56,098 bases of DNA, from NCBI GenBank assembly GCA_051819665.1, contig JBNJDG010000003.1, positions 1-56,098 on the forward strand, in the 5' to 3' direction. The DNA comes from Nanobdellota archaeon. GTDB taxonomy: Archaea; Nanobdellota; Nanobdellia; Woesearchaeales; CAZZGN01. The notes under the pieces were generated by a model. That model was not told where the DNA came from. It saw only the letters and a program-made list of their open reading frames with translations, and searched no databases. The position numbers and the translations under genes are program-made. How positions within the stretch are numbered: position 1 is the stretch's first letter; each line of letters opens with the position of its first letter. Below are positions 8,353 to 33,775 of this stretch, one piece after another.

Positions 8353-9942
8353 ATGAACCTGAAGATAAGAGATCTGGTCAAGCCCCATATAGAGAACCTG
8401 AGTGAGCTTAAGGAGATTCCCGGCTTATGGCACTTCAGGAGAGACATAATAAGAGAGGACAAGAATATACTCAGGAGATTCAGGAAGAGTATAAGGAAGA
8501 TCAAACCGGAGAAGATCCCTAAAGAAAAAAGAGAGGAAGTGGAGAGAGTTCTCAAAGAGATGATTGAGAAGCTCCAGAGCATGCTCAACCAGGAAGCCCA
8601 GAGTCCAGAGCTGTCAAAGGAAGAGGCAGAGGAGATAAACAAGCTGATAAGGATAGCTAACGGTAAGACGAAAGACTTCTCCGCTTTCAGATCAAGGAGA
8701 GATTTCCTGAAGAAGGCAGCCGCGATAAGTGCTGTAGCTGCTGTAGCACCGACAGAGCTGGCAAAAGCATCATCGGAATACAAACTTGATATAAGGGATC
8801 ATTACACAAGTAAGGATACGAAGGTAAGGAGCTCAACAAGCTATATAATCCTGCATACTACGGAAGCAGGGGATAACTCAAGCCTGAATTCGGTGACAAG
8901 GCATGCATCATGCAATTACCTCGTCATGAGTGATGGGCATGTGAAGAGGATCGTCAATATATGGAAACTCGCGAATCATGCCGGAGTGAGCATGTGGAAC
9001 GGGATAACCAACATAAGCGATCATTCTATAGGTATAGAGATAGCCGGGTATCATAATGAACAGCCGTCATGGAGGCAGAAAAGAGCCATCAGGGAACTTC
9101 TCAGACAGCTCCAGAAGAAGTTCAATATAGCTGACAGGGATGTATTGCCACATTCTGCAGTCGCTTATGCACAGAACAAATGGCATCCTTCGCCAGTAAG
9201 GGTGAGAAAGCCCTGTGCCATGCTTTATCATACAGAATCATTGAGGGAGCAGATAGGTCTTAAGGATAAGTACGAACATGATCCCGATATAAACGCAGGT
9301 AGGATTAGCTGGGCAGAGGACAAGACTACGGTAATGGCGAAAGATTACCTTTATGAAACAAATGAAGCAGAAAATAAGGTAGAGGACATAGCGAGGAAAG
9401 GAGGGACTGTCGATAAGGACCACAGCCCTTTCAGGCTTGCAGGGAACGCTTACAACTCGCCTTCAACCATATACATTTTCCCCGACGGAAATAAGAAGAA
9501 AGGAAGCGAGATAAGGGACTGGTCTTCCATGCCAGCAGGGACAAAGATAAAGGTGGACAGTTCCATGCTCGATATCGAGGAGGAGAATGTCGAATTCTAT
9601 AATATCAGCGAAGAGAACCCGACACCTTTCTCAGTAGCAGGGAATGAATACGATAAGAAAACTACAATATACTTCATACCTGTGGATGATGAAGGTACGG
9701 AGAAAGTGATGAGGGGTGACCAGATAGACGAGTTCAACAATATCCCGGCAGGAACAAGAGTTTTAGTCGGATTCACAGACGGAGGCAAAGTAAGCGGGGA
9801 GAGATCAGCTGATGATATCTGCGGTAAGAGATGGGATAACACTGACACTATATACAGGCTTCCCGACGGGGAGATCCTTAACGGCGAACAGATAGAGCAG
9901 AGCAAAATAAAACCCGGCACCTGGGTCTTCTTCAGGAGATAG
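8353..9942 (+). CDS. Secreted N-acetylmuramoyl-L-alanine amidase (Amidase_2/PGRP fold) with three C-terminal SH3-like repeats
   Basis: Twin-arginine-like motif SRRDFLKKAAAISAVAAVA at about aa 113. Amidase_2-like core YIILHTTEAG ... SIGIEIAGYH ... VLPHSAV. Three repeats of about 55 aa (PFRLAGNAY..TIYIFPDG.., PFSVAGNEY..TIYFIPVD.., ..CGKRWDNTDTIYRLPDG..). Confidence 0.7.
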   Translation: MNLKIRDLVKPHIENLSELKEIPGLWHFRRDIIREDKNILRRFRKSIRKIKPEKIPKEKREEVERVLKEMIEKLQSMLNQEAQSPELSKEEAEEINKLIRIANGKTKDFSAFRSRRDFLKKAAAISAVAAVAPTELAKASSEYKLDIRDHYTSKDTKVRSSTSYIILHTTEAGDNSSLNSVTRHASCNYLVMSDGHVKRIVNIWKLANHAGVSMWNGITNISDHSIGIEIAGYHNEQPSWRQKRAIRELLRQLQKKFNIADRDVLPHSAVAYAQNKWHPSPVRVRKPCAMLYHTESLREQIGLKDKYEHDPDINAGRISWAEDKTTVMAKDYLYETNEAENKVEDIARKGGTVDKDHSPFRLAGNAYNSPSTIYIFPDGNKKKGSEIRDWSSMPAGTKIKVDSSMLDIEEENVEFYNISEENPTPFSVAGNEYDKKTTIYFIPVDDEGTEKVMRGDQIDEFNNIPAGTRVLVGFTDGGKVSGERSADDICGKRWDNTDTIYRLPDGEILNGEQIEQSKIKPGTWVFFRR

Positions 9943-14406: not shown

Positions 14407-14853
14407 ATGAGCAAAAAAGAGGTATTGGACAGACACGAGGGCAGAGAGGACGAGCTCATAAACGTCCTCCAGGAGATCCAGGAAAAGGAAGGTTATCTTT
14501 CTCCAAAAACATTGGCCTATGTAAGCAAACATATGGACATCCCTTATGCGAAAGTCTATGGCGTAGCAACTTTCTATAACTTCTTCAAGCTGAAGCCGGG
14601 AGGAAAATACACCATACAGATGTGCAAAGGCACTGCATGTCATGTGAAAGGCTCCTCAGAGCTGTTCGATCATCTCAAGAAAAAACTGGACGTGGAGGAG
14701 AACGGGACGACAGAAGATGGTATCTTCACACTCTCTCCGGTGAATTGTCTCGGGATGTGCTCTCTGGCACCGTGCATGATGATCAATGGTAAAGTCTACT
14801 CAGAGCTTGACAAGGAAAGACTTGACAGCATAATAGATGATATGAGAAAATGA
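14407..14853 (+). CDS. hydC: [FeFe]-hydrogenase complex subunit HydC (NuoE-like thioredoxin-fold [2Fe-2S] protein)
   Basis: Cys ligand pattern CKGTACHVKG ... VNCLGMCSLAPCMMING. Overlaps the next gene by 4 nt. Confidence 0.85.
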   Translation: MSKKEVLDRHEGREDELINVLQEIQEKEGYLSPKTLAYVSKHMDIPYAKVYGVATFYNFFKLKPGGKYTIQMCKGTACHVKGSSELFDHLKKKLDVEENGTTEDGIFTLSPVNCLGMCSLAPCMMINGKVYSELDKERLDSIIDDMRK

Positions 14854-16553
14854 GACTCGAAAAGATAACAGTAGGGATGGGTACATGCGGCATCGCTTCA
14901 GGGGCAGATAAGGTAAAGAAAGAGCTCAAGAGACAGCTCGACATAGATGTCCCCGTGGACAGGGTAGGATGCATAGGTTCATGCTACCTGGAACCGATTG
15001 TAGAACTGAGGTTCGATAAGAGATCATACTTCTTCAGGAATGTAACGAAGGACAAGATACCTGAGATCATAGAGGGAGCCAAGCAACCGAAGAGGATAAA
15101 GAAGAAAGACCTAATAGACTTTGACGATCCTTTCTTCAGCAAACAGACAAAGCTCGTGACAAAGGATATAGGAAGGATAAACCCCGAATCTTACGATGAG
15201 TATGTACAGCACGGAGGCTTTGAAGGGCTTAAGAAAGCGGTAAAGCTGGAGCCTAAAGAGGCAATAGAGAAGATAGGAGAATCAAAGTTAAGAGGCAGAG
15301 GAGGAGCAGGTTTTCCCACTGCAAAGAAATGGAAATTCATCGTGGATGCCCCTTCACCTAAATACCTCATATGTAACGCTGATGAAGGAGACCCTGGTGC
15401 TTTCATGAACAGGACCATGCTGGAATCTGACCCATACAGGGTCCTTGAGGGAATGCTCATAGCTTCATATGCAACTGGCTGTGAGAACGGCATCATATAC
15501 ATAAGGGCAGAATATCCACTTGCCATAAAGACACTCGAGAAAGCCATAAAGACACTGAAGAAAAAGAAACTCTTGGGTAAGAACATCCTCGGAAAGTTCA
15601 ATTTTGACATCAAGATAAAGAAAGGGGCCGGAGCTTTCGTATGCGGTGAGGAAACAGCTTTGATGAAATCCGTGGAAGGCAAGAGAGGAATGCCTCAGAC
15701 AAGGCCGCCCTTCCCGGCACAGAAAGGTGTCTGGGGCTACCCGACAAACATCAACAATGTCGGTACTTTATCCCATGTGGCAACTATATTCAGGGAAGGT
15801 GTAAAGGAATATACAAAGTACGGCACAGAGAGATCCGGCGGCACGAAGATAATCTGCGTCGCAGGAAAAGTAGAACATTCGGGAGTTGTTGAGATACCTT
15901 TCGGCATCAGGCTCAAGGATATCGTTAACAAGATCGCAGTTGCAAAGGATTTCAAGGCATTACAGGCAGGAGGCCCTTCAGGAGGATGCATACCGAAGAG
16001 CAAGATAGACGTCCCTTATGATTACGAGACCATCCAGGAACTCGGTGCTATAGTCGGGAGCGGAGGAATGGTCTTCATGGATTCCAAGAACAACATGGTG
16101 GATGTCGCCAGGTATTTCCTCGAATTCACGAAAGCCGAGAGCTGCGGGAAATGCACGCCATGCAGGGAAGGCACATACAGGCTCCATGAGATGCTGGACA
16201 AGTTCCTAGGTTACAGGGCAGAGGAAGGTGATATAGAATTCACTGAAAAACTATGCAGGTATATCATGGATTCAGCTGTATGCGGGCTGGGACAGACCGC
16301 CCCAAATCCAGTCCTGACAACCATAAGATATTTCAGGAAAGAGTATGAGGGTTACATAATTGATGAGGACGTGAAGACATATTTCATCACTCCGGCCTGC
16401 GTAGGATGCCATAAATGCGCAGAGGTCTGTCCGCAGGGATGTATCTCAGGCAAGAGAGGAAAGAAACATAAGATAGATCAAAGCAAGTGTATCGAATGCG
16501 GGGCATGCTACAACGCCTGCAAGTTCAACGCTATCATCAAGAAGACGGATTAA
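14850..16553 (+). CDS. hydB: [FeFe]-hydrogenase complex subunit HydB (NuoF-like NAD(H)/FMN-binding, multi-FeS)
   Basis: N-terminal 2Fe-2S-like domain (GTCGIASG ... CIGSCYLEP), GRGGAGFPTAKKW, GAGAFVCGEETAL, ESCGKCTPCREG, and two C-terminal ferredoxin motifs (CVGCHKCAEVCP, CIECGACYNAC). Confidence 0.9.
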   Translation: MRLEKITVGMGTCGIASGADKVKKELKRQLDIDVPVDRVGCIGSCYLEPIVELRFDKRSYFFRNVTKDKIPEIIEGAKQPKRIKKKDLIDFDDPFFSKQTKLVTKDIGRINPESYDEYVQHGGFEGLKKAVKLEPKEAIEKIGESKLRGRGGAGFPTAKKWKFIVDAPSPKYLICNADEGDPGAFMNRTMLESDPYRVLEGMLIASYATGCENGIIYIRAEYPLAIKTLEKAIKTLKKKKLLGKNILGKFNFDIKIKKGAGAFVCGEETALMKSVEGKRGMPQTRPPFPAQKGVWGYPTNINNVGTLSHVATIFREGVKEYTKYGTERSGGTKIICVAGKVEHSGVVEIPFGIRLKDIVNKIAVAKDFKALQAGGPSGGCIPKSKIDVPYDYETIQELGAIVGSGGMVFMDSKNNMVDVARYFLEFTKAESCGKCTPCREGTYRLHEMLDKFLGYRAEEGDIEFTEKLCRYIMDSAVCGLGQTAPNPVLTTIRYFRKEYEGYIIDEDVKTYFITPACVGCHKCAEVCPQGCISGKRGKKHKIDQSKCIECGACYNACKFNAIIKKTD

Positions 16554-16554
16554 A

Positions 16555-18276
16555 ATGGTCAATATAAAGATCAACGGAAGGGAAATCGAAGCCAGGGAAG
16601 AGGATACTGTCCTGGATGTAGCTTTCAGGGAAGGGATAGAGATACCGCACCTCTGTTATGAGGAGAAGGTCTCAAAACCGGCAGGATGCAGGATGTGCCT
16701 TGTGGAGATAGAAGGCGCAAGGAACCTCAAACCCGCCTGTGTGACCAAAGTCAGAGAAGGGATGGATATAAGGACCCATTCACAGAGAGTCCTCGATTCA
16801 AGGAAAACCACCCTAAAGCTTTTGATGGCGAATCATCCTTCATGCCTCAAATGCGAAAGGAATCTGGACTGCAAACTGCAGAAATATGCCAACGAGCTCC
16901 TCATAGACGAGAGCCCATACAAGGGGAACAGGGAAAAAGAGATTGATAAGGGACAGGTCCTGAGGAGGGACAATTCACTGTGCATATTATGCGGCCAGTG
17001 CGTGAGGTACTGCAGTGAGGTCCAGAGCGTCCACGCCATAGATTTTGTGGACAGAGGAGTCAATGCGAAAGTCGGATGTGCTAACGACATGCCCATCGAC
17101 GAGAGTGTCTGTGTCGGTTGCGGACAATGTGTACTCCACTGCCCTACCGGCGCACTTGAAGAGACTTACGAGATAGATGAAGTGAAAGACCTTCTCAATG
17201 AATCCATCAAAGGAGACACATATAAGCATGTGGTAGTGCAGGTAGCCCCTTCACTAAGAGTATCGATAGGAGAACTCTTCGGTTACGAACCAGGAGAGGT
17301 CCTCACAGGGAAACTTGTCACGGCATTAAGGAGACTTGGTTTTAATGCTGTATTCGATACAAATTTCGGTGCTGACCTGACTATCGTCGAGGAAGCGACA
17401 GAACTTGTTGAAAGACTGGAAGAAGGGAAAGAGCTGCCCATGTTCACATCGTGCTGCCCGGGTTGGGTTAAGTTCGCAGAAACATTCTATCCGGATCTTA
17501 CCGAGAACCTTTCCACATGCAAGAGCCCGCAGGAGATGCATGCATCCATAACGAAGACCTATTATGCGGAGAAGAAAGGCATAAAACCGGAGAATGTGAA
17601 AGTTGTTGCGGTTATGCCCTGTACAGCGAAGAAATTCGAGAAGACCAGGCACCCCAATAAGAAAGGGTTCTATGACGTGGATCATGTGCTTACCACGAGA
17701 GAATTCGGGAAGCTTTGCAGGTTGTTCAATATAGACCCTAAAGATCTGGAAGATTCAGACTTTGACCCCGCCCTCGGTGAAAGCACAGGAGCAGGAGCAT
17801 TGTTCGGGAGCACAGGCGGAGTGATGGAAGCAGCCCTGAGAACAGCTTATGAGAAAACCACAGGGAAGAGTCTCGAAAAGGTCGAGTTCGATCAGATAAG
17901 AGGATATAAGGGTATCAAGGAAGGCTCTATAATAATCAACGGCAAAGAGATCCGGTTTGCTGTGGCTCATAGCCTCAAGAACGCCAGGAAGCTCGCGGAC
18001 GAGGTTAAAGCAGGGAAATCGAAATATCACTTCATCGAGGTGATGGCATGCCCCGGCGGATGCATAGGAGGAGGAGGACAACCAAGACCCTCTTCTATAA
18101 AGGTTATCAATAAGAGGATAAAAGGAATACAGAACATAGACTCGATGAAGACAATAAGGAGGAGCCACGAGAATCCTTCTGTCAAGAAACTCTATGAAGA
18201 TTTCCTTAAAAAACCCGGCGGGAAAAAATCACATAAACTACTGCATACAGAATACGTGAAAAGAGGAAAATTCTAG
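16555..18276 (+). CDS. hydA: [FeFe]-hydrogenase catalytic subunit HydA (M3-type: 2Fe-2S + His-ligated 4Fe-4S + 2x4Fe-4S + H-cluster domain)
   Basis: All three H-cluster signatures are present: TSCCPGW (17446-17466), MPCTAKKFE (17614-17640), EVMACPGGCIGGGGQP (18037-18084). Accessory cluster motifs are HPSCLKCERNLDC, CILCGQCVRYC and CVGCGQCVLHC. Confidence 0.92.
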   Translation: MVNIKINGREIEAREEDTVLDVAFREGIEIPHLCYEEKVSKPAGCRMCLVEIEGARNLKPACVTKVREGMDIRTHSQRVLDSRKTTLKLLMANHPSCLKCERNLDCKLQKYANELLIDESPYKGNREKEIDKGQVLRRDNSLCILCGQCVRYCSEVQSVHAIDFVDRGVNAKVGCANDMPIDESVCVGCGQCVLHCPTGALEETYEIDEVKDLLNESIKGDTYKHVVVQVAPSLRVSIGELFGYEPGEVLTGKLVTALRRLGFNAVFDTNFGADLTIVEEATELVERLEEGKELPMFTSCCPGWVKFAETFYPDLTENLSTCKSPQEMHASITKTYYAEKKGIKPENVKVVAVMPCTAKKFEKTRHPNKKGFYDVDHVLTTREFGKLCRLFNIDPKDLEDSDFDPALGESTGAGALFGSTGGVMEAALRTAYEKTTGKSLEKVEFDQIRGYKGIKEGSIIINGKEIRFAVAHSLKNARKLADEVKAGKSKYHFIEVMACPGGCIGGGGQPRPSSIKVINKRIKGIQNIDSMKTIRRSHENPSVKKLYEDFLKKPGGKKSHKLLHTEYVKRGKF

Positions 18277-18467
18277 ACCAGGTTAAAACCGTATCTCAAC
18301 ACCAGATAGAAGAGGATAATAGCAACCAACAACATCAGGAAAGTGTTGATTATCCTGCTCCTGTCATCTCCCCCCATCATATCATTCCAGGCATCCCTTG
18401 ATTCCTTGAAGATGACTTCGTCCTTTGTCATCCTGGGATTGCCTCTGGACCTTCTTGAACGTGCCAT
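18273..18467 (-). CDS. Small (64 aa) basic protein with one C-terminal TM helix, hypothetical
   Basis: Internal Met of the 162-aa track ORF. The upstream part of that ORF is antisense to acpS and its promoter. A TTTAAATATT box lies about 30 nt upstream of 18467. Confidence 0.35.
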   Translation of the reverse strand: MARSRRSRGNPRMTKDEVIFKESRDAWNDMMGGDDRSRIINTFLMLLVAIILFYLVLRYGFNLV

Positions 18468-18543
18468 TAATTTTTCTAAAGTGAAAATAATATTTAAATG
18501 TATTGTCGAAAGCTTTTTATATCCTTCATAATGCTTTCTCAGG

Positions 18544-18852
18544 ATGGAAACAGGCATAGATCTTGTCAATGTTGACAGGATGAAGAGCATCATTGAAGAT
18601 GAAGAGAAGATGAATAAGATCTTCAACCCGTCCGAGATGAGCGATGATCCAGAGAGGCTTGCAGGTATATTCGCTGCTAAAGAGGCCTTCTTCAAGGCCA
18701 AAGGGATGGATGAGTGGCTAAAGGCGGAAGTGCTAAAGGATGAAGAAGGGAAACCTTCCATCAGATATGAAGGAAAAGACTATAAAGCGAGCATAAGCCA
18801 CGAGGACAAATATGCTATAGCCATGGTGGTTATTCTTGAATACAATAAATGA
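18544..18852 (+). CDS. acpS: Holo-[acyl-carrier-protein] synthase (AcpS-type 4'-phosphopantetheinyl transferase)
   Basis: GIDLVNVDRM start, AAKEAFFKA and ISHEDKYAIAMVVI motifs at 102 aa, typical AcpS length. Overlaps the next gene by 17 nt. Confidence 0.8.
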   Translation: METGIDLVNVDRMKSIIEDEEKMNKIFNPSEMSDDPERLAGIFAAKEAFFKAKGMDEWLKAEVLKDEEGKPSIRYEGKDYKASISHEDKYAIAMVVILEYNK

Positions 18853-21283
18853 TGTAATAAGATCATTCCGTAAGACAGAAAAAGAGGCATGTGTGTATAA
18901 GGACGGCTTCAGGGATTATAGATGGAGTTATAAAGAGTTATACGAAAGGATCCTCAAGACTATACATCTCCTGGATAAGAAAGGTGTGAGGAAAGGGGAC
19001 AAGGTCATGATATGGGCCCCAAACTCACCTGAATGGGTCATCTGTCATCTTGCCATAATCGGGAGAGGTGCAATCTCAGTTCCAGTAGATCTAATGTCCA
19101 ATAATATAGAGAGCCTTGCGGAACATTGCAAGCCCAAGCTCATAATTAAGACTATCTTCAAGAGGAAAGTCGAATACGATGCAGAGACCATCCTTATAGA
19201 GAAGATGGACAAGACCCTCGATAAGAAAGGAAGGATAAGAGAAGCCAGTGAAGAAGATCTAGTGAACATTGTATACACCTCCGGGACTACGGGTGATCCC
19301 AAAGGGGTGAAACTAACGCATAAGAACATCATGTCCAACATAACGAGCGTGACCACCCATATCCATTTCGGCAGGAAGGACAAATTCCTCTCTCTTCTTC
19401 CATTAAGCCATATGTTCGAACAGACCTGCGGTATGATGGGCCCTTTGTATGCCGGATCCTCCATTGTCTATCTCCATTCCCTCAAACCAAGTGCTATATT
19501 CAAGGGCCTTGAGGAAGAGGATATCACAATCATGCCCACGGTACCCAGGATACTACAGGCGCTGAGGAAAGGGATACTCACGAAAGTTAGGAGCACATGG
19601 CTCGGTTATGCTTATTCTCTTCTCTTCCGCGCGAACATACCCATGAAAAGATGGATACATGCAAGGATACACCACAAGATAGGGAATAAGTTCAGGTTCT
19701 TCGTCAGCGGAGGTTCTGCTCTTGATCCGCTTACAGAAAGGTTCTGGAACAATCTCGGTTTCAAAGTGATCCAGGGCTATGGACTTACGGAATGCTCACC
19801 CATCCTCACAGCGAACCTTGAGGAAGACTACAGGTTCCAGAGTGCAGGAAAGCCCATACCAGGCGTAAAGATGAAGACAGAGAACGGGGAAGTGATGGCC
19901 AAAGGAGAGAATATATTCCCCGGTTATTATAAGGACAAGAAACTCACGAACAGTTCATTCTCGAATGGATGGTACAGGACCGGAGATGTGGGGCATTTCA
20001 AAGACGGTTACCTCTATATAAAGAGCAGGAAAAAAGACGTAATCGTGACAAAAGCAGGTGTGAATGTCTACCCCGAGGATATAGAGCCGGTGATAAACTC
20101 TTACGAAGGCATAAAAGAGGCATCGATCATAGGCATGGGAGACAATACAGGGGAGAATGTCCATGCTGTCATAGTTCCTGAAGAGGGATACAATATAGAT
20201 GAGATAGTGGAAGAGGTGAATGAGGAGCTGAACCCGTCACAGAAGATCAGAGATTTTACCATCTGGCCCGAGGATGATCTGCCGAAGACATCCACACTCA
20301 AGGTGAAGAAAGGCCTGCTAAAAGAGAAGATCAAGAAGAAGGATGTCAGGAAAAGGAGAGGTGGGAAATTTTCTAAGATCGTGAAGATGCTGGCTGAGAT
20401 CTCTCCGCTCACCATAGAACAGATAAGACAGGATCATAAGATCTACTCTGACCTGAAGATCGATTCCATAGGAAGGGTAGAGCTTGTATCGAGGATCGAG
20501 AGAGAGTTTAATTTCGATTTCGAGGAAGAGATGATCACTGAGAAGACCACTGTAAATGACCTTGAAGAGATGGTAAAGGAGAAGAAGAAAGGTAAACAGA
20601 AAGTGAAGTATCCCAAATGGACAGAGAAAAGATGGGTCAGGAAACTCAGAAAATGTTTCCTAAAGCATGTGAACCTAAAACTACCACTTAAGTATATGGA
20701 CATCACCGTCAAAGGGAAAGATAACCTGAAGGGTGTCAGAGGGCCTGTGATATTCGTCTCGAACCATCAGAGTTTCTTCGATCATCCTGCTATACTTTCC
20801 TCCCTGCCTGAAAGGTTCAGGTACAACACAAGTGCACCGGCCAAGTGGGAAGTGTTCTTCGAAAGGCCTACGGGAATACTCAATAAGCTCAAGATGAGGT
20901 TCTGGTACATCTATGTGATATCCACAATGGGGCTTTACGTGATGCCCGAACACCACAGCTATAAGAAAAGCCTTGAGTATACAGGAAGGAGGATCAACCA
21001 GGGAGAGAACATACTCATCTTCCCGGAAGGCGCAAGGACCACCACCGATAAGCTCCTTCCTTTCAGGAAAGGTTCTTCTGTGATAATACAGAAACTGAAC
21101 ATCCCCGTAGTTCCGATTGGTATAGACGGACTCGTCGAGATCTTTCCCAGGACCGTAAAGAAACCTATAAAGAAAGGACCTGTGAAGGTGAACATAGGTA
21201 AACCGATAAGGTTCAGGGATGAAAGCCTCAACGAGATAATGAAGACGATAAGGAAAGAGATCGACAGGCTGAGGAAACAGTGA
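18836..21283 (+). CDS. Tri-domain fusion: AMP-dependent acyl ligase (acyl-ACP/CoA synthetase-like) + phosphopantetheine carrier domain + PlsC-type lysophospholipid/glycerol-3-phosphate acyltransferase
   Basis: Adenylation motifs YTSGTTGDPKGV, GYGLTE, YRTGD, KSRKKDVIV. Carrier motif DLKIDSIGRVEL (Ser544, codon 20465-20467). Acyltransferase motifs VSNHQSFFD (HX4D) and IFPEGARTT. Confidence 0.85.
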   Translation: MNTINDVIRSFRKTEKEACVYKDGFRDYRWSYKELYERILKTIHLLDKKGVRKGDKVMIWAPNSPEWVICHLAIIGRGAISVPVDLMSNNIESLAEHCKPKLIIKTIFKRKVEYDAETILIEKMDKTLDKKGRIREASEEDLVNIVYTSGTTGDPKGVKLTHKNIMSNITSVTTHIHFGRKDKFLSLLPLSHMFEQTCGMMGPLYAGSSIVYLHSLKPSAIFKGLEEEDITIMPTVPRILQALRKGILTKVRSTWLGYAYSLLFRANIPMKRWIHARIHHKIGNKFRFFVSGGSALDPLTERFWNNLGFKVIQGYGLTECSPILTANLEEDYRFQSAGKPIPGVKMKTENGEVMAKGENIFPGYYKDKKLTNSSFSNGWYRTGDVGHFKDGYLYIKSRKKDVIVTKAGVNVYPEDIEPVINSYEGIKEASIIGMGDNTGENVHAVIVPEEGYNIDEIVEEVNEELNPSQKIRDFTIWPEDDLPKTSTLKVKKGLLKEKIKKKDVRKRRGGKFSKIVKMLAEISPLTIEQIRQDHKIYSDLKIDSIGRVELVSRIEREFNFDFEEEMITEKTTVNDLEEMVKEKKKGKQKVKYPKWTEKRWVRKLRKCFLKHVNLKLPLKYMDITVKGKDNLKGVRGPVIFVSNHQSFFDHPAILSSLPERFRYNTSAPAKWEVFFERPTGILNKLKMRFWYIYVISTMGLYVMPEHHSYKKSLEYTGRRINQGENILIFPEGARTTTDKLLPFRKGSSVIIQKLNIPVVPIGIDGLVEIFPRTVKKPIKKGPVKVNIGKPIRFRDESLNEIMKTIRKEIDRLRKQ

Positions 21284-21343: not shown

Positions 21344-22363
21344 ATGAACATCATGCAGAAAGCCAGGATCCTAGGAGAGGCAGGAAGATACGACAGCTGC
21401 GGACCAAAGGAATGCGAGGTGAAGGTCAAGAATTCTTTAGGCGGCCTCTACCATGCGGAATCGGAGAACCCCAACTGTATCATGCTCAAGACACTCATGA
21501 GCAATTCATGTGTACATGACTGCAGATATTGTGCGAATTCGGGATGCAGCCAGAGGAAAACATCCTATAAGCCTGAAGAGCTCGACAGGATATTCTATCA
21601 CCTGAAAAAGAAAAGAAAGGTTAACGGCCTCTTCTTAAGCTCGGGTGTAGGCAGTGATCCTGACAGGACAATGGAAGAGATGATCGATGCGGTCAGGAGG
21701 ATAAGGAGATGGTTCAAAGGTTACGTCCATCTCAAGGTATTGCCGGGCACAGACAGGGATCTCATAAAACGTGCATCAGCTCTTGCAGACAGGATGAGCA
21801 TCAATATAGAAGCTCCTGATAAACTGAAGATGCATGAGCTCTCTTCCACCAAGGATTTTAAGACAGACATCCTGAGGAGACAGTCATGGATAAAGAGAAC
21901 AGGGGTCTCGCAGACAAGCCAGATGATAATAAACAATGATTCTTCAGACAAGGACATCATGAAGATGGCCAGATGGCAGTACAATAAGATGAACCTGAGC
22001 AGATTATACTATTCTTCCTTCGTACCGGTGAAAGGGACACCCATGGAGAAAGAACGAGCAGTCAGCAGGACAAGACAGAACAGGCTATACAATATAGATT
22101 TCATGACGAGGAAATATGGTTATGATTTCAGGGAGTTCAACAGTATCATGGACAACGGCATGCTGCCGAGGGAAGACCCTAAGATGGCTCTTGCAAAAAA
22201 AAGGCCGAAAGCAAGCCTTGATTCAGGTTATGAAGAACTGTTGAGAGTTCCGGGGATAGGCCCGAAAACAGCTAAGAGGATAGTGGAGGAGAGGCCAGCA
22301 AGAATATACGGGAAAGCCTCTGCCTTCATCAGGGGACAGCAGAGTAACCTGAACGAATTCTGA
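21344..22363 (+). CDS. Radical SAM protein with a C-terminal helix-hairpin-helix (the 'putative DNA modification/repair radical SAM' family)
   Basis: N-terminal AGRYDSCGP, the CRYCANSGC region, and a C-terminal LLRVPGIGPKTAKRIV HhH. Confidence 0.65.
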   Translation: MNIMQKARILGEAGRYDSCGPKECEVKVKNSLGGLYHAESENPNCIMLKTLMSNSCVHDCRYCANSGCSQRKTSYKPEELDRIFYHLKKKRKVNGLFLSSGVGSDPDRTMEEMIDAVRRIRRWFKGYVHLKVLPGTDRDLIKRASALADRMSINIEAPDKLKMHELSSTKDFKTDILRRQSWIKRTGVSQTSQMIINNDSSDKDIMKMARWQYNKMNLSRLYYSSFVPVKGTPMEKERAVSRTRQNRLYNIDFMTRKYGYDFREFNSIMDNGMLPREDPKMALAKKRPKASLDSGYEELLRVPGIGPKTAKRIVEERPARIYGKASAFIRGQQSNLNEF

Positions 22364-22409
22364 GAGAGCCTTCACAAGAATTAAATACCCCTGATGATCC
22401 TAAGCTTTC

Positions 22410-23729
22410 ATGATAATACATATCTTCAGGAGAGACTTGAGGATTTACGATAACACAAGCCTCAGGAAAGCTCTGGAAAAGGATTCTGTTATCCCTTGTT
22501 TCATACTCGATCCGGGGCAGAGGGATCATGACTTCTTCTCTGATAATGCTTTCAGTTTCATGATCGACTCATTGGAAGGTCTTGACAACTCGCTTAAGAG
22601 AAAGAAGAGCAGGCTACATCTCTTCAGCGGCAGAGCCGATGAGGTGGTTGAAGATATAATTAAGAAGACAGGCGCAGAAGCTGTATATGTAAATAAGGAT
22701 TATACCCCCTTCTCCATAAAGAGAGACAAAGAGATAAAGGAAAAATGTAGGGAAGCAGGTGTTGAATTTAAAGTGCATGATGATTGCCTTCTCAATAAAC
22801 CGGAAGACACACTGAAGAAAGACGGTAGCCCTTATACCGTATTCACTCCATTCTACAAGAAAGCCAAGGATATCGAAGTAAGGGAGCCAGCAGATGTTAG
22901 AGGAAATCTGTCTTATATGAAAGGTCTTGGTAATTCTAAGTTCCCGAAGATAAAGAAGAACAAATTTTCTGCAGAAGGGGGGAGAGAAAAAGGCCTTGAG
23001 CTGCTTAAGAATATCGAAGGATACAAGAATTACCGTTACATCAGAGATATTCCTGCAAGGGATCATACCACAAGATTAGCACCCCATCTGAAATTCGGTA
23101 CTGTCTCAGCGAGGGAGGTCTATCATTTCCTCAGGGATAATCTTGATGAGGAAAGCCTGATAAGGCAGCTTTACTGGAGGGATTTCTATACACAGATCGC
23201 TTATTTCTTCCCACATGTATTCGGGGATCCTTTCAGGAAAAAATACAGGAACGTCAGATGGGATTATGACAAGAAAAAATTCAGGCAGTGGTGCGAAGGG
23301 AAGACAGGCTTCCCTATAGTTGATGCAGGGATGAGACAGCTTAACAGGACAGGTTATATGCATAACAGGGTGAGGATGATCGTCGCTTCTTTCCTCACTA
23401 AACATCTGCATATAGACTGGAGATGGGGCGAGAAGTATTTCGCGCAGAAACTCACAGATTATGACCCTGCTGTGAACAACGGGAGCTGGCAGTGGGCCGC
23501 ATCTACAGGATGTGACGCGCAGCCTTTCTTCAGAGTATTCAATCCATGGAGACAGCAGTTAAGGTTCGATAAGGATTGTGAGTACATTAAGAGATGGGTT
23601 CCCGAACTTTCTGATAAGAATAAGACTGAGATCAACAATCCGGAAAGTTCTTTCGATGATTATCCAAGACCTATAGTGGATCATAAGACCGAGAGGGAAG
23701 AGGCCATAGCAAGGTTTAAGGAGATCTAG
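22410..23729 (+). CDS. phr: Deoxyribodipyrimidine photolyase / cryptochrome family flavoprotein
   Basis: LYWRDFY, TGFPIVDAGMRQLNRTGYMHNRVRMIVASFL and NNGSWQWAASTG motifs. Confidence 0.9.
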   Translation: MIIHIFRRDLRIYDNTSLRKALEKDSVIPCFILDPGQRDHDFFSDNAFSFMIDSLEGLDNSLKRKKSRLHLFSGRADEVVEDIIKKTGAEAVYVNKDYTPFSIKRDKEIKEKCREAGVEFKVHDDCLLNKPEDTLKKDGSPYTVFTPFYKKAKDIEVREPADVRGNLSYMKGLGNSKFPKIKKNKFSAEGGREKGLELLKNIEGYKNYRYIRDIPARDHTTRLAPHLKFGTVSAREVYHFLRDNLDEESLIRQLYWRDFYTQIAYFFPHVFGDPFRKKYRNVRWDYDKKKFRQWCEGKTGFPIVDAGMRQLNRTGYMHNRVRMIVASFLTKHLHIDWRWGEKYFAQKLTDYDPAVNNGSWQWAASTGCDAQPFFRVFNPWRQQLRFDKDCEYIKRWVPELSDKNKTEINNPESSFDDYPRPIVDHKTEREEAIARFKEI

Positions 23730-23764
23730 AACAGATTCAATATCAAAAGGGCAACGGTTACAAA

Positions 23765-24003
23765 GAAAGTGGGGACACTGACACAAATTATTACGCAAAT
23801 TTGGAATGCAAGGTGGGTTTCCTTCACTTCGTTCAGTCAAGCCCACTCAAGACAAGTTGTGCTTTATGCACCACCAAAGTGTCAACTGATTTTCAGTTGC
23901 GCTGATTTGGAATGCGCTCCTGGGGAGTGCCCCATAGGGGCAAGGTGGGTTTCCTTCACTTCGTTCAGTCAAGCCCACAGTCATGAAGAAACTGGGGACA
24001 CTG
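23765..24003 (-). repeat. Non-coding module of about 225 bp immediately 3' of tRNA-Trp. It is bounded by direct copies of the tRNA 3' end (TGGGGACACTG at 23770-23780 and 23993-24003, plus strand) and contains two 39-bp repeats (23808-23846, 23940-23978) and two copies of ATTTGGAATGC.
   Basis: Exact repeats read directly from the sequence. The region holds only spurious repeat-derived ORFs. Confidence 0.85.
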
Positions 24004-24113
24004 GGATTCGAACCCAGATCCGCTGGTATCTCCAAGGCTAGATGTCATCGGCTTACGCCTCTTCGCTCCAATTACTGGAGCCAGCTATACTAGCCGGATT
24101 ATACTATGTCCCC
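23993..24113 (-). tRNA. tRNA-Trp (anticodon CCA), 121-nt gene with a 47-nt intron at the canonical 37/38 position (about 24028-24074)
   Basis: Acceptor GGGGACA/TGTCCCC, D stem GTAT/GTAT (wobble) with GG in the loop, anticodon stem GCTGG/CCAGC, loop CTCCAG^intron^A, T arm CTGGG-TTCGAAT-CCCAG. The exon CTCCA pairs with intron TGGAG, giving a bulge-helix-bulge geometry. Confidence 0.85.
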
Positions 24114-26771: not shown

Positions 26772-27260
26772 TTAACGTGCAGATAATTCCTTATCAACCA
26801 TCAAGAGACCATTGGAAGAATCCTTGACCCTCTTCAGCTTCTTGACGATCTCATCAACACTCGATTCCTCCTCTACCTGCTCATCTATGAACCAGTTAAG
26901 GAAAGACCTTGTCGCAAACTCTTCCTCTTCCTCTGCAAGTTTGGCGAGATCATTGATCATCTTAGTCACTTTCTGCTCATGCGCATAAGCTTCCTCGAAT
27001 GCTTCCAGAGCCGAAGACCAGGAGGACTTGGGATTCTCTATCGCTTCAAGATTCACCCTTCCTCCTCTCTCTACGATATGATCAAATAGCTTCATCGCAT
27101 GCTCTTTCTCTTCCTCTGCCTGTTTCCTCATCCAGCTTGCAGCTCCGGGGAGGTCTATATCCTCCATGTAAGCCGACATAGCCAGATAAAGATAGCCGGA
27201 GTAAAGTTCCTTGTTTATCTGTCCGTTCAATGCTTTCTGCATCTTCTCTTTTATCTCCAT
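26772..27260 (-). CDS. ftn: Ferritin (non-haem, ferroxidase di-iron centre)
   Basis: LNGQINKELYSGYLYLAMSAY, EEEKEHAMKL and YAHEQKVT motifs. Confidence 0.88.
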   Translation of the reverse strand: MEIKEKMQKALNGQINKELYSGYLYLAMSAYMEDIDLPGAASWMRKQAEEEKEHAMKLFDHIVERGGRVNLEAIENPKSSWSSALEAFEEAYAHEQKVTKMINDLAKLAEEEEEFATRSFLNWFIDEQVEEESSVDEIVKKLKRVKDSSNGLLMVDKELSAR

Positions 27261-27270
27261 TCATATCACC

Positions 27271-27882
27271 TTATCTGTTCGTGTAAAGATAGTTTACCTG
27301 ATCCCAGTTGATCACATTAAAAAATGCTTCGATGTAGTCAGGCCTTTTATTCCTGTATTTCAGGTAGTAAGCATGCTCCCAGACATCAATCGTCAGGAGA
27401 GGCTTGAAACCATGGGAGATAGGTGTCTCCTGATTTGAGGTGGACATTATCTTAAGGTTTCCCTCCTTGTCTTTCACAAGCCATGCCCAGCCGCTCCCGA
27501 ACTGTCCTTTGGCAGCCTCGGAGAACTTCTGCCTGAAAGCATCATAGCCCCCAAATTCTTTCTTTATAGCTTCCGCTATCGGCCCTTCAAATGCAGTATC
27601 CTTCTTCAATACCTTCCAGAAGAGCTTATGATTCACGAAGCCGCCCCCGTGATCCCTGATCTTTTTCCTGAGCTCTTCAGGAGCATCTTCAACCCCGGCC
27701 ACTATCTCCTCGGCAGATTGTCCTTCGAACTCTTCCCTGCCCTTTATCGCCACGTTGAATTTATCAAGATAAGCCTGGTGATGCTTATCATGATGGAGCT
27801 TCATCGTCTCCTCATCGATATATGGCTCTAAAGCGTCATAATCGTATCCTAAATCCGGCAATTCAAATTGTACCATCTTCAT
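27271..27882 (-). CDS. sod: Fe/Mn superoxide dismutase
   Basis: LPDLGYDYDALEPYID, HHDKHHQAY and DVWEHAYYLKY motifs. Confidence 0.93.
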   Translation of the reverse strand: MKMVQFELPDLGYDYDALEPYIDEETMKLHHDKHHQAYLDKFNVAIKGREEFEGQSAEEIVAGVEDAPEELRKKIRDHGGGFVNHKLFWKVLKKDTAFEGPIAEAIKKEFGGYDAFRQKFSEAAKGQFGSGWAWLVKDKEGNLKIMSTSNQETPISHGFKPLLTIDVWEHAYYLKYRNKRPDYIEAFFNVINWDQVNYLYTNR

Positions 27883-27887
27883 TCACC

Positions 27888-28457
27888 TCATATTTTTCCT
27901 ACCAGGTCTGTGCCCGGCTTAAGTGTCTCACCACCTGGTTTCCAGTTCATCGGACAGGCCTCTCCGCCATGCTCTCTGACGTACTTGGCCGCCTGTATCT
28001 TCCTGATCAGCTCATCGACATTCCTTCCTATATCGTTATGGTGAAACTCGAAAGCCTTCACATTACCATCCGGGTCTATCAGGTATGTTGCCCTGAGAGA
28101 GACTCCCTCGTTCTCTATCAGAGTCCCGTACTCCTTGGTGACTCTCCGGGCCGGGTCCGAAAGCATCGGGAAATTGACCTTCTTGATCGTCTCTGAATTA
28201 TCATGCCATGCCTTATGGACATAAGCAGTATCCCCGCTCACGGATATAACTTCTGCACCCAATTCCTTGAACTTCTCGTAGTTGTCTGCAAGCTCTCCAA
28301 GCTCTGTAGGGCATACAAAGGTAAAATCGGCAGGGTAGAAAAAAAGCACTACCCATTTCCCCTTATAATCACCAAGGCTGATTTTCTTTATATCCCCATC
28401 CACAAAAGCTTCCTCTGTAAATTCGGGAGCCTTCTCATCTATATTCAACATTTTCAT
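27888..28457 (-). CDS. ahpC: Typical 2-Cys peroxiredoxin (AhpC/Prx1 type)
   Basis: FYPADFTFVCPTE (peroxidatic Cys) and a C-terminal GEACPMNWKPG (resolving Cys). Confidence 0.9.
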   Translation of the reverse strand: MKMLNIDEKAPEFTEEAFVDGDIKKISLGDYKGKWVVLFFYPADFTFVCPTELGELADNYEKFKELGAEVISVSGDTAYVHKAWHDNSETIKKVNFPMLSDPARRVTKEYGTLIENEGVSLRATYLIDPDGNVKAFEFHHNDIGRNVDELIRKIQAAKYVREHGGEACPMNWKPGGETLKPGTDLVGKI

Positions 28458-28462
28458 TCACC

Positions 28463-29125
28463 TCATTTATAACAGAACCACCAGTCCTTGCATTCGTACC
28501 CGTCCTGTTCTTTCCTCTTATTGACCTCTGTCACATTGCTTGCAGGAGGAAGTATAACCTTATCACCTATAAGCCCATTATTTGGCCAGTCTGCCGGCAT
28601 GGCTACCTTCTCCTCATCAGACTTCCTGAAAGCCCTGACCATACGTAAGATCTCGTCTATGTTCCTGCCGAGCTCCTGCGGATAATAGAGCATCGCCCTT
28701 AAGACCCCCTGAGGATCGACTATGAACACAGCTCTCACTGTATTGGAGCCCTTATCAGGATGGATCATGCCGAGCTTCTTTGCCACATTCCCATGATCGG
28801 CTATTATCGGGAACTCTATATTGACATCAAGATTATCCTTTATCCATTCGGTCCATTTCATATGGGAGAAGACCTGATCTATGGAAAGACCTATGAGTTC
28901 AGCTCCCTCTTTCCTGAAATCCTCGTACCTCTCCTGGAAAGCAGCAAATTCTGTCGTACATACCGGCGTGAAATCAGCCGGGTGGCTGAAGAGCACGAAC
29001 CATTTCCCCTTATAATCAGTCGGGAGTATAAGGTCTCCGTGTGTTGTATGTGTCGAAAGATCCGGAAACTTGGATCCTATCTGTGGCATCATATTATCAT
29101 TCTCCATTGCTAACACCTCACTCAT
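28463..29125 (-). CDS. Peroxiredoxin (Prx6-like/archaeal 1-Cys-type)
   Basis: [15 protein letters not shown] and PADWP motifs. Confidence 0.88.
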
Positions 29126-29716: not shown

Positions 29717-30913
29717 ATGGACCCGATTATCATGAAATCAATAGTAATAGCAATAGTAGTAATTACCGTATGTTTCCTTGTCTATCTAAAGTTCAGGAAC
29801 AGCATGGTCACTAAAGCAGTCATAATATCAGGTTATACAGCAATTATAGTCGGAATCATAGGTGTCATAATGGGAGCCAATAAGCTATCGGCCCTTCAGG
29901 CATTCGGTGTATTCAATATAAGTGCCGTACTGGTAGTACCTTTCATAATACTCTATGGCCTGAAATATCTTATAAAACCGGCTGAAGAGATAAAGAAGAA
30001 GATGAAGAGCCTCTCCGAGAACAATCTTTCCGAAAGGATAGAACATAAAGCGAAAGATGAATTCGGAGATATCGGAAGAAGTTATAACTCGGCAATGGAT
30101 AATCTTTCAGAGCTCCTCAATAACATCAAGGAATCAGTTGAAAACACCTCTTCCATGACAGAAAAACTGAGTTCCACATCCGAAGAGGTCAACGCATCGA
30201 TGCAGCAGGTCAGTTCTACAGTACAGGAAGTATCTAAAGGAGCCCAGAACACCTCTAAAAGTGCCGGCGAAGCCCAGAACGCTTCCAAGAAAACATCCAA
30301 TTCTGCAAAGAAAGGAAGTGATGCCGCTAACAAAGTGAAGGAAAAGATGGATACAATCTCCTCTACTACTAAAGAAGGGACCGAAAAGGTCAAGGCTTTG
30401 GGAGATAAATCCAAGCAGATAAACGAGATCGTCGATACTATCAACGATATCTCCGAACAGACAAACCTGCTTGCGCTCAATGCAGCTATCGAGGCAGCAA
30501 GAGCAGGAGAAGCCGGAAGAGGCTTCGCTGTCGTAGCTGACGAGGTAAGGAAACTTGCAGAACAGTCAGGAAAAGCCACAGGAAAGATCTCTGACCTGAT
30601 AAACAAGATACAGGAAGAGATCAACACTTCCGTAGAAAGCATGGATAAAAACACTAAACAGGTTGAGGAAGGAACTTCGGCTGTACAGGAAGCTCTCGTG
30701 GCTTTCGAGGAGATACCTGCTCTTGTCCAGAACGTAGACAAACAGCTTTCGGACATGTCCTCTGTAGCCGAGGAGAACGCCGCCGGTAGTGAAGAGGTGA
30801 GCAGTTCCGTTGAAGAAGTGACCAGCTCGATGCAGCAGGTCAGCGACTCTGCTCAGGAATTATCCAAGAGCTCGGAAAAACTAAAAGAGATGGTCTCCAA
30901 ATTCCAGACCTGA
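29717..30913 (+). CDS. Methyl-accepting chemotaxis protein (2 TM + HAMP + MCP signalling domain)
   Basis: Highly conserved hairpin tip [45 protein letters not shown] Shine-Dalgarno upstream. Confidence 0.9.
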
Positions 30914-33674: not shown

Positions 33675-33775
33675 ATTTAAATATGTCGGGTATGCCCTAT
33701 AAAATATATTCTTTAAGTTGTTTACCGAAATAGTTATAAGACAGAATTCTTTACCAGAGCTGATAAGGGACAACA

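Follow-up and report, generated by a model that had tools for sequence, protein, structure and literature searches.

The window analysed here, a 56,098-nt stretch of contig JBNJDG010000003.1 from a Nanobdellota archaeon (Woesearchaeales), presents at 18544-21283 two open reading frames (ORFs) on the forward strand that fill this interval and, according to ORF calling, overlap by 17 nt. The first encodes an AcpS-type 4'-phosphopantetheinyl transferase (PPTase) and the second an 815-aa protein, hereafter the fusion, in which an adenylation domain, a carrier domain and an acyltransferase follow one another (Table 1). The initial annotation of this locus had described a 102-aa AcpS overlapping an 815-aa ORF by 17 nt, and the pair was found exactly where it had been placed. 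The gene 5' of AcpS stops at 18276, and the 267-nt gap that separates them contains an A/T-rich element resembling a TATA box (TTTTTATAT). Given this element and the length of the gap, AcpS and the fusion look like a short operon of their own, for which TTTTTATAT would be the putative archaeal promoter, implying a leaderless or short-leader transcript. An antisense ORF of 162 aa (18273-18761, reverse strand), serine-rich and of low complexity, overlies the intergenic gap along with the initial two thirds of the AcpS gene, and is probably spurious.

The overlap between both genes suggests translational coupling, and an identical 17-nt AcpS/fusion overlap is present in the nearest homologous locus (L001, 5700-6017 and 6001-8475). 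The TTG start of the fusion is credible because its homologues align from residue 1 (MNTINDVI in the window against MKTIIDII and similar) and because a Shine-Dalgarno-like GGTGG precedes it by 6 nt. The possibility that the fusion might be an artefact of a missed stop codon or a frameshift, raised when the locus was initially annotated, can be set aside together with that of a mis-assembly. The ORF is continuous, the region contains 0 N bases, and 118 homologues of 810-862 aa are collinear with the query over 97-100% of its length, beginning at the residue encoded by TTG and continuing to the final one, in addition to the overlap shared with L001.

The PPTase matches the Pfam ACPS family (PF01648, E 5.7e-12; 46.1 bits against a cutoff of 25) and TIGR00556 (49.8 bits, cutoff 45.35), and falls below the stricter acpS equivalog TIGR00516 (42.7 bits against a cutoff of 59.8). 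The closest solved structures are those of Staphylococcus aureus AcpS (5cxd/4dxe, E 7e-10), and the alignment with this enzyme preserves the G-I-D (Asp6), A-K-E-A-F-F-K-A (Glu47, Lys51) and S-I-S-H (His86) segments. These four residues, which we take from structural work on AcpS to be the Mg2+/CoA-binding and catalytic positions, are invariant across 9 fusion-linked AcpS sequences. With 102 aa and one PF01648 domain, the protein has the size of the single-domain class, whose members span about 120 aa, as opposed to the roughly 230 aa of the two-domain Sfp type, and it is shorter than the canonical enzyme because of loop deletions that appear as gaps in the S. aureus AcpS alignment. AcpP-type carriers are the natural substrate class of AcpS-type PPTases, and this protein is predicted to turn the carrier domain encoded downstream from its apo into its holo form, with CoA as donor.

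Searches with the fusion recovered PF00501, PF00550 and PF01553 which, together with the PF01648 domain of AcpS, make up the complete set of Pfam families that the initial annotation had anticipated. The N-terminal ANL domain matches AMP-binding (PF00501, residues 13-365, E 3.3e-73) and AMP-binding_C (PF13193, residues 416-487, E 7.4e-7). All the ANL core motifs are in place, including the three on which adenylation had originally been proposed, which lie at the expected residues: the P-loop YTSGTTGDPKGV, GYGLTE (E319) and YRTGD (D384), followed by SRKKD and PKTSTLKVKK (K489). In an alignment of 118 full-length homologues, on which conservation was assessed throughout, the P-loop residues T148, S149, G150, T152, P155, K156 and G157 are invariant, as are E319, D384, R398, K400 and K489. 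The closest solved ANL structures by sequence are FadD13, MenE and MatB, with the acyl-ACP synthetase AasS of Vibrio harveyi also matched (E 4e-25), and no fatty acyl-AMP ligase (FAAL), the CoA-independent subclass that loads carrier proteins only and in which a specific insertion blocks the conformation for CoA-dependent thioesterification, was present among the top sequence and fold matches of this domain.

An AlphaFold2 model of the full-length protein (mean pLDDT 91.3, pTM 0.90) has the McyG didomain of adenylation and peptidyl carrier domains as its best match in the PDB, over 660 columns. Foldseek superimposed the ANL domain on MatB, MenE and feruloyl-CoA synthetase with TM-scores of 0.82-0.86 (target-normalised) and root-mean-square deviations (rmsd) of 3.4-4.2 A, the lowest ANL rmsd values corresponding to ATP- or AMP-bound, adenylate-forming states. 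Compared with the solved ANL structures, the window protein has some 40 additional residues (helices 237-282), seen as split alignments and a segment of lower pLDDT.

The carrier domain, searched in isolation, matches the AcpP-type acyl carrier protein (ACP) models TIGR00517 and NF002148, and resembles the AcpP of fatty-acid synthesis rather than the carriers of nonribosomal peptide synthetases. Fold comparison, in line with a four-helix-bundle ACP fold, likewise returned many AcpP-type ACPs, with rmsd values of 1.7-2.2 A over 65-74 residues. Ser544, within the DSIGRVEL segment that had been singled out as the carrier serine, aligns with the DSL serine of Escherichia coli-type AcpP and is invariant (118/118 sequences), and the helix surrounding it (D-x-x-x-S-I/L-x-R-x-E-L) is invariant or nearly so. 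Ser544 (D-S-I-G) is hence the predicted phosphopantetheine attachment site.

The C-terminal region is predicted to adopt an LPLAT/AGPAT fold and contains both acyltransferase motifs initially reported for it, NHQSFFD (H644, D649) and FPEGARTT (E731, G732, R734). In motif I, residues N643, H644 and D649 are invariant in the 118 homologues, so that the catalytic His and Asp are both accounted for, and the fold match is PlsC-like. Motif III presents invariant F729 and E731, nearly invariant P730 and G732, and an arginine (R734) that is also nearly invariant (at least 90% conservation among 12 sampled sequences); in AGPATs this arginine contacts phosphate. Motif IV (IPVVPIGI) has an invariant P760 and a nearly invariant P757. 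The acyltransferase profile finds Thermotoga maritima PlsC (5kym) as its best PDB match, and this is also the best fold match (Foldseek E 1.5e-9, TM-score 0.60-0.61 target-normalised, 215-217 columns, 25% identity), ahead of GPAT1 and PatA. The fold matches of the acyltransferase, and those of the carrier, were obtained with a separate model of the carrier-acyltransferase half (pLDDT 82.9). Against curated models, the isolated domain scores equally on Aas-type NF006386 (1e-13) and PlsC-type TIGR00530 (4.6e-13), and it weakly matches the lyso-ornithine-lipid O-acyltransferase OlsA models (E 7e-6 and 3e-4).

AGPATs carry a motif II, G-x-x-F-I-x-R, whose arginine binds glycerol-phosphate. The corresponding region of the fusion is replaced by a family-specific helix and an F-P-L-P-Q-like segment (YVMPEHH in the window), with a conserved R662 (LPxxxRY). 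Since this region does not align with PlsC, the acceptor may not be lysophosphatidic acid or glycerol-3-phosphate, and the acceptor class cannot be read from the sequence. A basic helical linker precedes the acyltransferase core, and two of its residues, W595 and R605, are nearly invariant. No transmembrane helix was predicted in the 815-aa protein, which, together with this basic helix, fits a peripheral, interfacial enzyme for which the linker would be a candidate membrane-binding element. Sequence conservation and predicted folds thus support the view that AcpS and each of the three domains are catalytically competent.

The initial annotation had considered the domain order of the fusion unusual, and this part of it did not withstand a broader survey. 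A large-database search returned more than 4,455 matches at E<=1e-10, and the best 120 of these all measure 810-862 aa, cover 97-100% of the query and share 38-52% identity with it. All three core Pfam domains are annotated in 110 of the 120, and in the other 10 it is just the weak PP-binding match that is missing. An exact look-up of the window fusion in the contig index gave no match. The named members belong to Geobacter, Desulfuromonadales, Desulfobulbaceae, several lineages of the candidate phyla radiation (CPR; Kaiser-, Sung- and Kerfeldbacteria) and Woesearchaeota, and the family as a whole extends over Geobacterales, Acidobacteriota, many CPR phyla and DPANN archaea. Searching 1.84 billion 50%-identity representatives with a profile of the carrier-acyltransferase half identified 808 clusters at E<=1e-30 with the identical architecture, the full-length members of which are mostly 800-860 aa long and match at residues ~520-830. 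The Geobacter sulfurreducens member (AAR35055.1 / WP_010942320.1) already bears the name 'Acyl-(acyl carrier protein) ligase, acyl carrier, [acyl-]glycerolphosphate acyltransferase fusion protein', and the core of the myxobacterial protein ElbD has the same order. Given this large family, the Geobacter annotation and the ElbD-like literature, the domain order is not unusual, and the window enzyme is one ordinary member of a sizeable, annotated and uncharacterised family. In a rough neighbour-joining tree, indicative only, the window protein groups with L001, P0003, L222 and P0009 beside a Kaiserbacteria group, and the Geobacter clade and the Woesearchaeota L002 protein are placed elsewhere. 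The archaeal fusion sequences are hence not monophyletic, as L002 sits apart from the window protein.

Previous reports have touched on several of these elements. Other phyla are known to contain ElbD-like homologues devoid of the fatty-acyl reductase (FAR) domain (PMC9131029). For metagenome-assembled genomes (MAGs) of Woesearchaeia, ElbD hits have been noted briefly and taken to indicate that bacterial ether lipids might be formed (PMC11868695). PlsC and PlsY of bacterial origin (PMC6431249), as well as Fab genes (FabG, FabI and FabZ) and Cfa synthase (PMC10936187), have been reported in DPANN/Woesearchaeota bins. The open-access literature searched yielded neither a functional study of the FAR-less fusion nor an account of its coupling to AcpS. 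The AcpS-fusion operon context does seem to be the new element here, as we have not found it described before.

The association between AcpS and the fusion was surveyed in both directions. For the fusion side, the carrier-acyltransferase half was used as query; an earlier scan with generic adenylation motifs had yielded mostly ordinary acyl-CoA ligases. Outside the Geobacterales and Acidobacteriota, AcpS abuts the fusion in 11 of the 13 loci, comprising the window and archaeal loci L001, L002 and L007, CPR loci L005, L168, L188 and L198, and loci L216, L221 and L222. In L186, AcpS lies 1.4 kb downstream of the fusion, and L169 is the sole case among the 13 without a linked AcpS. No AcpS was detected within the flanks of the fusion in the ~43 informative loci from Geobacterales, Desulfuromonadales and Acidobacteriota. 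The Geobacterales and Acidobacteriota hosts have their own type II pathway for making fatty acids (FAS II) and an AcpS elsewhere in the genome.

For the reverse survey, the best 80 AcpS matches among 185,579 GTDB species representatives were inspected. A same-strand fusion was found in 8/10 archaeal-labelled loci, at a maximum distance of 2.1 kb, in 9/9 CPR-labelled loci, at a maximum of 0.9 kb, and in 0/57 loci from other bacteria. Four more loci with a fusion comprise two labelled as Chloroflexi, one labelled 'bacterium' and L255, which lies on the same contig as L216. Regarding the ninth and tenth archaeal loci, the contig of L234 ends right after AcpS, where the same MFS transporter gene found in other modules begins, and in L246 (1314-3809) a same-strand AcpS directly follows Pta-AckA (phosphate acetyltransferase and acetate kinase), with no fusion. 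Overall, AcpS is linked in 12/12 archaeal fusion-bearing loci and in 11/12 CPR loci.

Gene order within these modules varies among AcpS-fusion, fusion-AcpS and AcpS-MFS-fusion, which argues for selection on the linkage rather than for a single frozen transfer. AcpS and the fusion thus form a conserved pair in DPANN archaea and CPR bacteria, supporting the notion of a dedicated PPTase put forward in the initial annotation, with AcpS tied to the fusion by linkage in both directions. Some taxonomic labels in this dataset deserve comment. Many third-party annotation (TPA) MAGs labelled 'uncultured Methanosarcinales archaeon' (L088, L093, L095-L098 and others) encode a SecY 63-70% identical to that of the window and group with Woesearchaeota MAGs, some of them evidently belonging to one clade with these, so that the label is probably a taxonomic mis-assignment. 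Methanosarcinales-type TPA labels also concern L007, L167, L225, L227, L233 and L246, and the 'Saccharibacteria' and 'Gammaproteobacteria' TPA labels on L169, L186, L188 and L216 may be equally loose.

Genes with lipid-related functions recur around the module in related genomes. Patatin-like phospholipases flank it in 8 loci: L005 (two copies), L229, L169, L186, L198, L216, L188 (a fragment) and the archaeal-labelled L007. The Kaiserbacteria arrangement runs patatin, patatin, AcpS, fusion and Cfa, where Cfa is a genuine cyclopropane-fatty-acyl-phospholipid synthase (541 bits, cutoff 400). Archaeal modules L002, L227, L230, L231, L233 and L236 enclose an orthologous ATG22-like MFS transporter, the copies of which are 46-71% identical to one another, and L234 probably carries it too. 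This transporter is absent from the CPR loci, the Geobacter loci and the window. A Pacearchaeota module adds an alpha/beta hydrolase. Acting in phospholipid deacylation, modification and possibly uptake, these neighbours, though drawn from relatives, provide the best available evidence for a phospholipid-type acceptor, and the patatins, Cfa synthase and conserved MFS strengthen the role in salvage or remodelling that had been suggested initially. In L001, a FabH/HMG-CoA-synthase-like protein with ACP_syn_III domains (3894-4976) and an archaeal histone (5178-5396) are encoded just upstream of the AcpS-fusion pair.

From the domain identities, conserved catalytic residues, fold predictions and gene linkage described above, we propose that both genes constitute a self-contained module in which acyl chains are activated and then transferred to a glycerophosphate lipid. 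In this scheme, AcpS would transfer 4'-phosphopantetheine from CoA onto Ser544, and the ANL domain would adenylate a free fatty acid, probably of medium or long chain, with ATP and load the acyl group as a thioester on the holo-carrier in cis. The carrier would then swing the acyl chain to the C-terminal PlsC-fold domain, where the H644/D649 dyad would esterify it onto a hydroxyl of a phosphate-bearing glycerolipid at the membrane interface. The acceptor would most likely be a lysophospholipid or lysophosphatidic acid, and less likely glycerol-3-phosphate. Such a unit would operate without free ACP, acyl-CoA pools or FAS II, and in a DPANN archaeon and in CPR bacteria it would serve to salvage or remodel fatty-acyl ester lipids obtained from other cells. 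CPR bacteria have been reported to lack ACP-dependent lipid synthesis and yet to contain acyl-ester lipids rich in lysolipids (PMC7242380). We assign the overall scheme, based on sequence and structure prediction, a probability of about 0.6. The steps leading to the acyl-S-carrier are more likely than the scheme as a whole, the acceptor being its weak point; for the substrate class, the loading of the carrier in cis, the identity of the acceptor, the association with the membrane and the physiological role, we infer the most plausible option from the observations given. In the original interpretation of the locus, then, the domain assignments, the chemistry and the idea of salvage appear reasonable, and the claim of an unusual architecture does not.

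Several observations weigh against this scheme. The ANL domain is similar to acyl-CoA synthetases, FadD13 among them, with no CoA-independent FAAL among its top matches, and the stretch between motifs I and III, where AGPATs have motif II (GxxFIxR), fails to align with PlsC. The module MFS was considered as a possible LplT and rejected, given that NCBIfam returns only generic MFS matches for it. The window represents a minimal two-gene version of the module: its 56 kb contain no patatin, DPANN-type MFS, further carrier protein or further acyltransferase, and its AcpS-fusion operon includes no lipid gene beyond the pair. Finally, the open-access literature searched contains no biochemistry for any FAR-less member of the family, and acyltransferase activity went undetected in vitro for ElbD (PMC9131029).

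The divergence in the motif II region bears on an alternative that maintains the same chemistry up to the acyl-S-carrier and replaces the glycerophospholipid acceptor with a lyso-ornithine or amino-acid lipid, a glycolipid, a protein or a small metabolite. The weak OlsA matches and the presence of PatA, a phosphatidylinositol-mannoside acyltransferase, among the fold matches point in the same direction as the unaligned motif II, but the best sequence and fold matches are to PlsC, Aas-type acyltransferases and GPAT1, R734 is nearly invariant, and the neighbours of the relatives (patatin, Cfa synthase) act on phospholipids. Furthermore, no OlsB or glycosyltransferase partner was present in any locus seen, and we regard this alternative as unlikely. 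The same divergent region, and the archaeal nature of the host, could instead indicate an archaeal-type acceptor, either based on glycerol-1-phosphate or a lyso/monoalkyl archaeal lipid, generating a hybrid acyl/isoprenoid lipid; bacterial PlsY and PlsC are reported to use both glycerol-phosphate stereoisomers (PMC13400652). Members of the family with 39-45% identity and the same conserved residues, however, occur in Geobacter and CPR hosts without archaeal lipids, and the archaeal sequences are neither monophyletic nor distinguished by an archaeal-specific motif set, making such an acceptor quite improbable.

The resemblance of the ANL domain to acyl-CoA synthetases, which comprise its closest solved and curated relatives, raises the prospect of an ordinary acyl-CoA synthetase joined to an acyltransferase that uses free acyl-CoA, with a vestigial or regulatory carrier and an AcpS serving some other carrier encoded elsewhere in the genome. 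Other Woesearchaeota reportedly carry FabG, FabI and FabZ (PMC10936187), so that other ACP-dependent enzymes may exist, and the archaeal AcpS locus L246 has no fusion nearby. The invariance or near-invariance of Ser544 and its surrounding helix in 118 sequences would nonetheless be unexpected were the domain vestigial, DPANN and CPR genomes keep AcpS physically coupled to the fusion, which it overlaps by 17 nt in the window, and no free-standing carrier of this type is encoded within the 56 kb. The ACS of ElbD, moreover, loads its own ACP in vitro (PMC9131029), and we consider this explanation very unlikely. Least probable of all is a functional equivalent of ElbD in alkyl/alkenyl ether lipid formation, the role proposed for the Myxococcus elb cluster, since, despite the common ACS-ACP-AGPAT core (PMC9131029) and the reading of Woesearchaeia ElbD hits as ether-lipid potential (PMC11868695), Pfam detects no reductase or NAD-binding domain, the ANL domain starts the protein and homologues align from residue 1, leaving no route from thioester to aldehyde or alcohol, and no neighbours resembling ElbB (HAD hydrolase), ElbC or ElbE (NAD-dependent epimerase) occur in the window or in ~30 DPANN/CPR loci.

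Transfer of salvaged acyl chains to a glycerophosphate lipid, the reading we favour, would have implications beyond this locus. The source of the membranes of CPR bacteria and DPANN archaea, most of which lack fatty-acid or isoprenoid lipid synthesis, is an open question, and a unit whose sole needs are ATP, free fatty acid, a little CoA to prime the carrier and a lyso-lipid to accept the chain would account for the rebuilding or retailoring of scavenged lipids with neither ACP nor acyl-CoA pools. The AcpS-coupled module is a hallmark of the ultra-small, lipid-auxotrophic lineages in both domains and a testable candidate for salvage, and its CPR/DPANN-specific linkage turns a vague 'ElbD-like hit' into a concrete protein pair that can be expressed and assayed. 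If active on ester lipids in Woesearchaeota, it would mean that these archaea hold salvaged bacterial-type acyl lipids, which bears on the lipid divide. A broader proposal, that the AcpS-coupled module, with MFS in DPANN and patatin/Cfa in CPR, is a core membrane-lipid salvage machine common to the ultra-small symbionts of both domains, is possible but on balance doubtful; were it correct, some Woesearchaeota would build at least part of their membrane from the ester-linked fatty-acyl lipids of bacterial hosts, crossing the lipid divide by salvage and not by synthesis.

The remaining content of the contig is consistent with the host assignment. Archaeal genes include those for PCNA, a Hef helicase/ERCC4 nuclease, PheRS alpha and beta, a Sec61-type SecY with plug domain and an EMC3/TMCO1-like insertase, and the window SecY shares 62-70% identity with its counterparts in MAGs that bear Woesearchaeota, Nanoarchaeia or Nanobdellota labels. 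A bacterial contaminant contig was rejected on the basis of the archaeal informational genes on the same contig. Contig gene content, SecY identity and an intron-containing tRNA agree with the archaeon of a reduced-genome lineage presumed in the initial annotation. This tRNA, at 23993-24113 on the reverse strand, contains a 51-nt intron and lies beside an exact 39-nt direct repeat (23808-23846 and 23940-23978), with an 81%-identical copy of the region of its 3' end (23754-23780 against 23977-24003). The repeats at 23754-24113 may represent a duplication or the scar of an integration. A second over-long tRNA hit, of 145 nt, is found at 3886-4030 on the reverse strand.

The locus is flanked by [FeFe]-hydrogenase genes upstream and by genes for a radical-SAM/helix-hairpin-helix protein and a photolyase downstream. 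Directly upstream of the AcpS operon, 14850-18276 (+) encodes a 567-aa NuoF-like, HydB-like flavoprotein and a 573-aa [FeFe]-hydrogenase large subunit to which a small-subunit domain is fused, suggesting a fermentative, H2-evolving metabolism. The regions 21344-23729 (+) and 26772-29125 (-) encode the radical-SAM protein, whose helix-hairpin-helix is C-terminal, a class I photolyase, ferritin, an Fe/Mn superoxide dismutase and two peroxiredoxins, a damage-defence cluster that suggests exposure to light and oxygen and is of note for a presumed anaerobic fermenter. Elsewhere, the window contains a methyl-accepting chemotaxis protein with HAMP and MCP signalling domains (29717-30913, +; E 5e-50), unusual for a reduced-genome DPANN archaeon, and a 503-aa fusion of MtrA-like, thymidylate-synthase-like and pterin-binding DUF4346 domains (32265-33776, -). 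A 529-aa protein (8353-9942, +) carries an N-acetylmuramoyl-L-alanine amidase domain (Amidase_2, E 4e-19), identifying it as a peptidoglycan hydrolase, and would fit published suggestions that some DPANN archaea reportedly attack or attach to bacterial cell walls. A 211-aa membrane protein (40054-40689, +) matches Pfam PF07314 'Lit' (lipoprotein intramolecular transacylase, E 2e-27), a bacterial-type family unexpected in an archaeon. It was not used as support for ester lipids, given scores of 35 bits against the NCBIfam Lit equivalog cutoff of 400 and of 67.6 against 74.8 for TIGR01906.

Table 1. Coordinates of the AcpS-fusion locus in the window and of the MFS transporter gene in related archaeal modules.
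Feature	Position	Strand	Basis
TATA-box-like A/T-rich element TTTTTATAT, ~26 nt 5' of the AcpS ATG (putative promoter)	18514-18522	+	read from sequence
AcpS-type (group I, single-domain) 4'-phosphopantetheinyl transferase, 102 aa, ATG start	18544-18852	+	ORF call, Pfam, NCBIfam
Shine-Dalgarno-like GGTGG, 6 nt 5' of the fusion TTG, within the end of the AcpS gene	18825-18829	+	read from sequence; predicted function
17-nt overlap of AcpS stop region and fusion start	18836-18852	+	ORF call
815-aa tri-domain protein (adenylation, carrier, acyltransferase), TTG start	18836-21283	+	ORF call, Pfam
ANL domain, residues 1-500; A10 lysine K489, codon 20300-20302	18836-20335	+	PF00501, PF13193
Carrier (ACP-like) domain, residues 514-580; Ser544 codon 20465-20467	20375-20575	+	PF00550 (E 1.1e-9)
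Basic helical linker, residues 590-620, 11 K/R against 1 D/E, before the acyltransferase core	20603-20695	+	composition; helices 594-618 in model
LPLAT/AGPAT-fold acyltransferase domain, residues 623-815	20702-21280	+	PF01553 (623-763, E 4.8e-20)
Motif I, N643-H644-x4-D649 (NHQSFFD)	codons 20762-20782	+	sequence
Motif III, F729-P730-E731-G732-x-R734	21020-21037	+	sequence
MFS transporter gene in related modules (L234 probable)	L227:369-1589, L230:3781-5031, L231:4756-5946, L233:6262-7317, L236:3781-5013, L002:3030-4226, L234:3808-4029		

Comparison with known systems places the fusion next to two proteins that share its core architecture. The G. sulfurreducens fusion has the same three-domain order and a similar length (824 against 815 aa), aligns over 100% of its length with 40% identity and retains the catalytic residues. 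It differs from the window protein in having no adjacent AcpS, and also lacks a neighbouring patatin or MFS; its bacterial host is free-living and has a FAS II of its own, and the function of its fusion is known by annotation only. The Myxococcus xanthus ElbD protein (FAR-ACS-ACP-AGPAT) presents an ACS-ACP-AGPAT core in the same order and, like the window protein, is soluble (PMC9131029). ACS and ACP activities of ElbD have been demonstrated in vitro, with the ACS loading its own ACP (PMC9131029, citing Lorenzen 2014). Only ElbD possesses an N-terminal fatty-acyl reductase (FAR1-like, NAD-binding) and an elbA-E operon, in keeping with its implied role in forming alkyl-ether lipids, which needs reduction.

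Individual domains find their counterparts in stand-alone enzymes. The acyltransferase domain shares HX4D, FPEGxR and the motif IV prolines with T. maritima PlsC (5kym), and differs from it in the unaligned motif I-III stretch, including the motif II arginine. PlsC takes its acyl chain from free acyl-ACP or acyl-CoA, whereas the donor in the window protein would be a tethered acyl-carrier, and the N-terminal two-helix membrane anchor of PlsC has the basic linker helix in its place. V. harveyi AasS, also recovered as a fold match (8i35), is an ANL enzyme that loads exogenous fatty acids on the ACP thiol; it differs in being a stand-alone protein that acts on free AcpP, and FadD13, MenE and MatB score better than it does.

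The overall logic is shared with the E. coli Aas and LplT pair and with the MFS-AT-AAS triple fusions (NF006386, NF005291), which use ATP to attach a free fatty acid to a phosphopantetheine thiol and then reacylate a lysophospholipid. The window acyltransferase domain scores best on NF006386, and the DPANN loci place an MFS gene in the operon, although this transporter is ATG22-like and not recognisably LplT, unlike the Aas partner. The full-length protein reaches 160 and 159 bits against Aas-type models with cutoffs of 1349 and 1221, and the acyltransferase domain alone 23-50 bits (23.3 for NF005959, the model of the bifunctional E. coli Aas type, against a cutoff of 886). The opposite domain order relative to Aas, which had already been pointed out in the initial annotation, is borne out by the NCBIfam Aas-type models, where the acyltransferase occupies N-terminal or middle positions (85-140 of 719, or 408-600 of ~1140) and the ligase the C-terminal ones (775-1089 of ~1140). 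Aas thus presents its acyltransferase ahead of the ligase, contains no internal carrier and relies on free ACP in trans, whereas the window protein would carry its acyl chain on a carrier in cis, supplied with a PPTase of its own.

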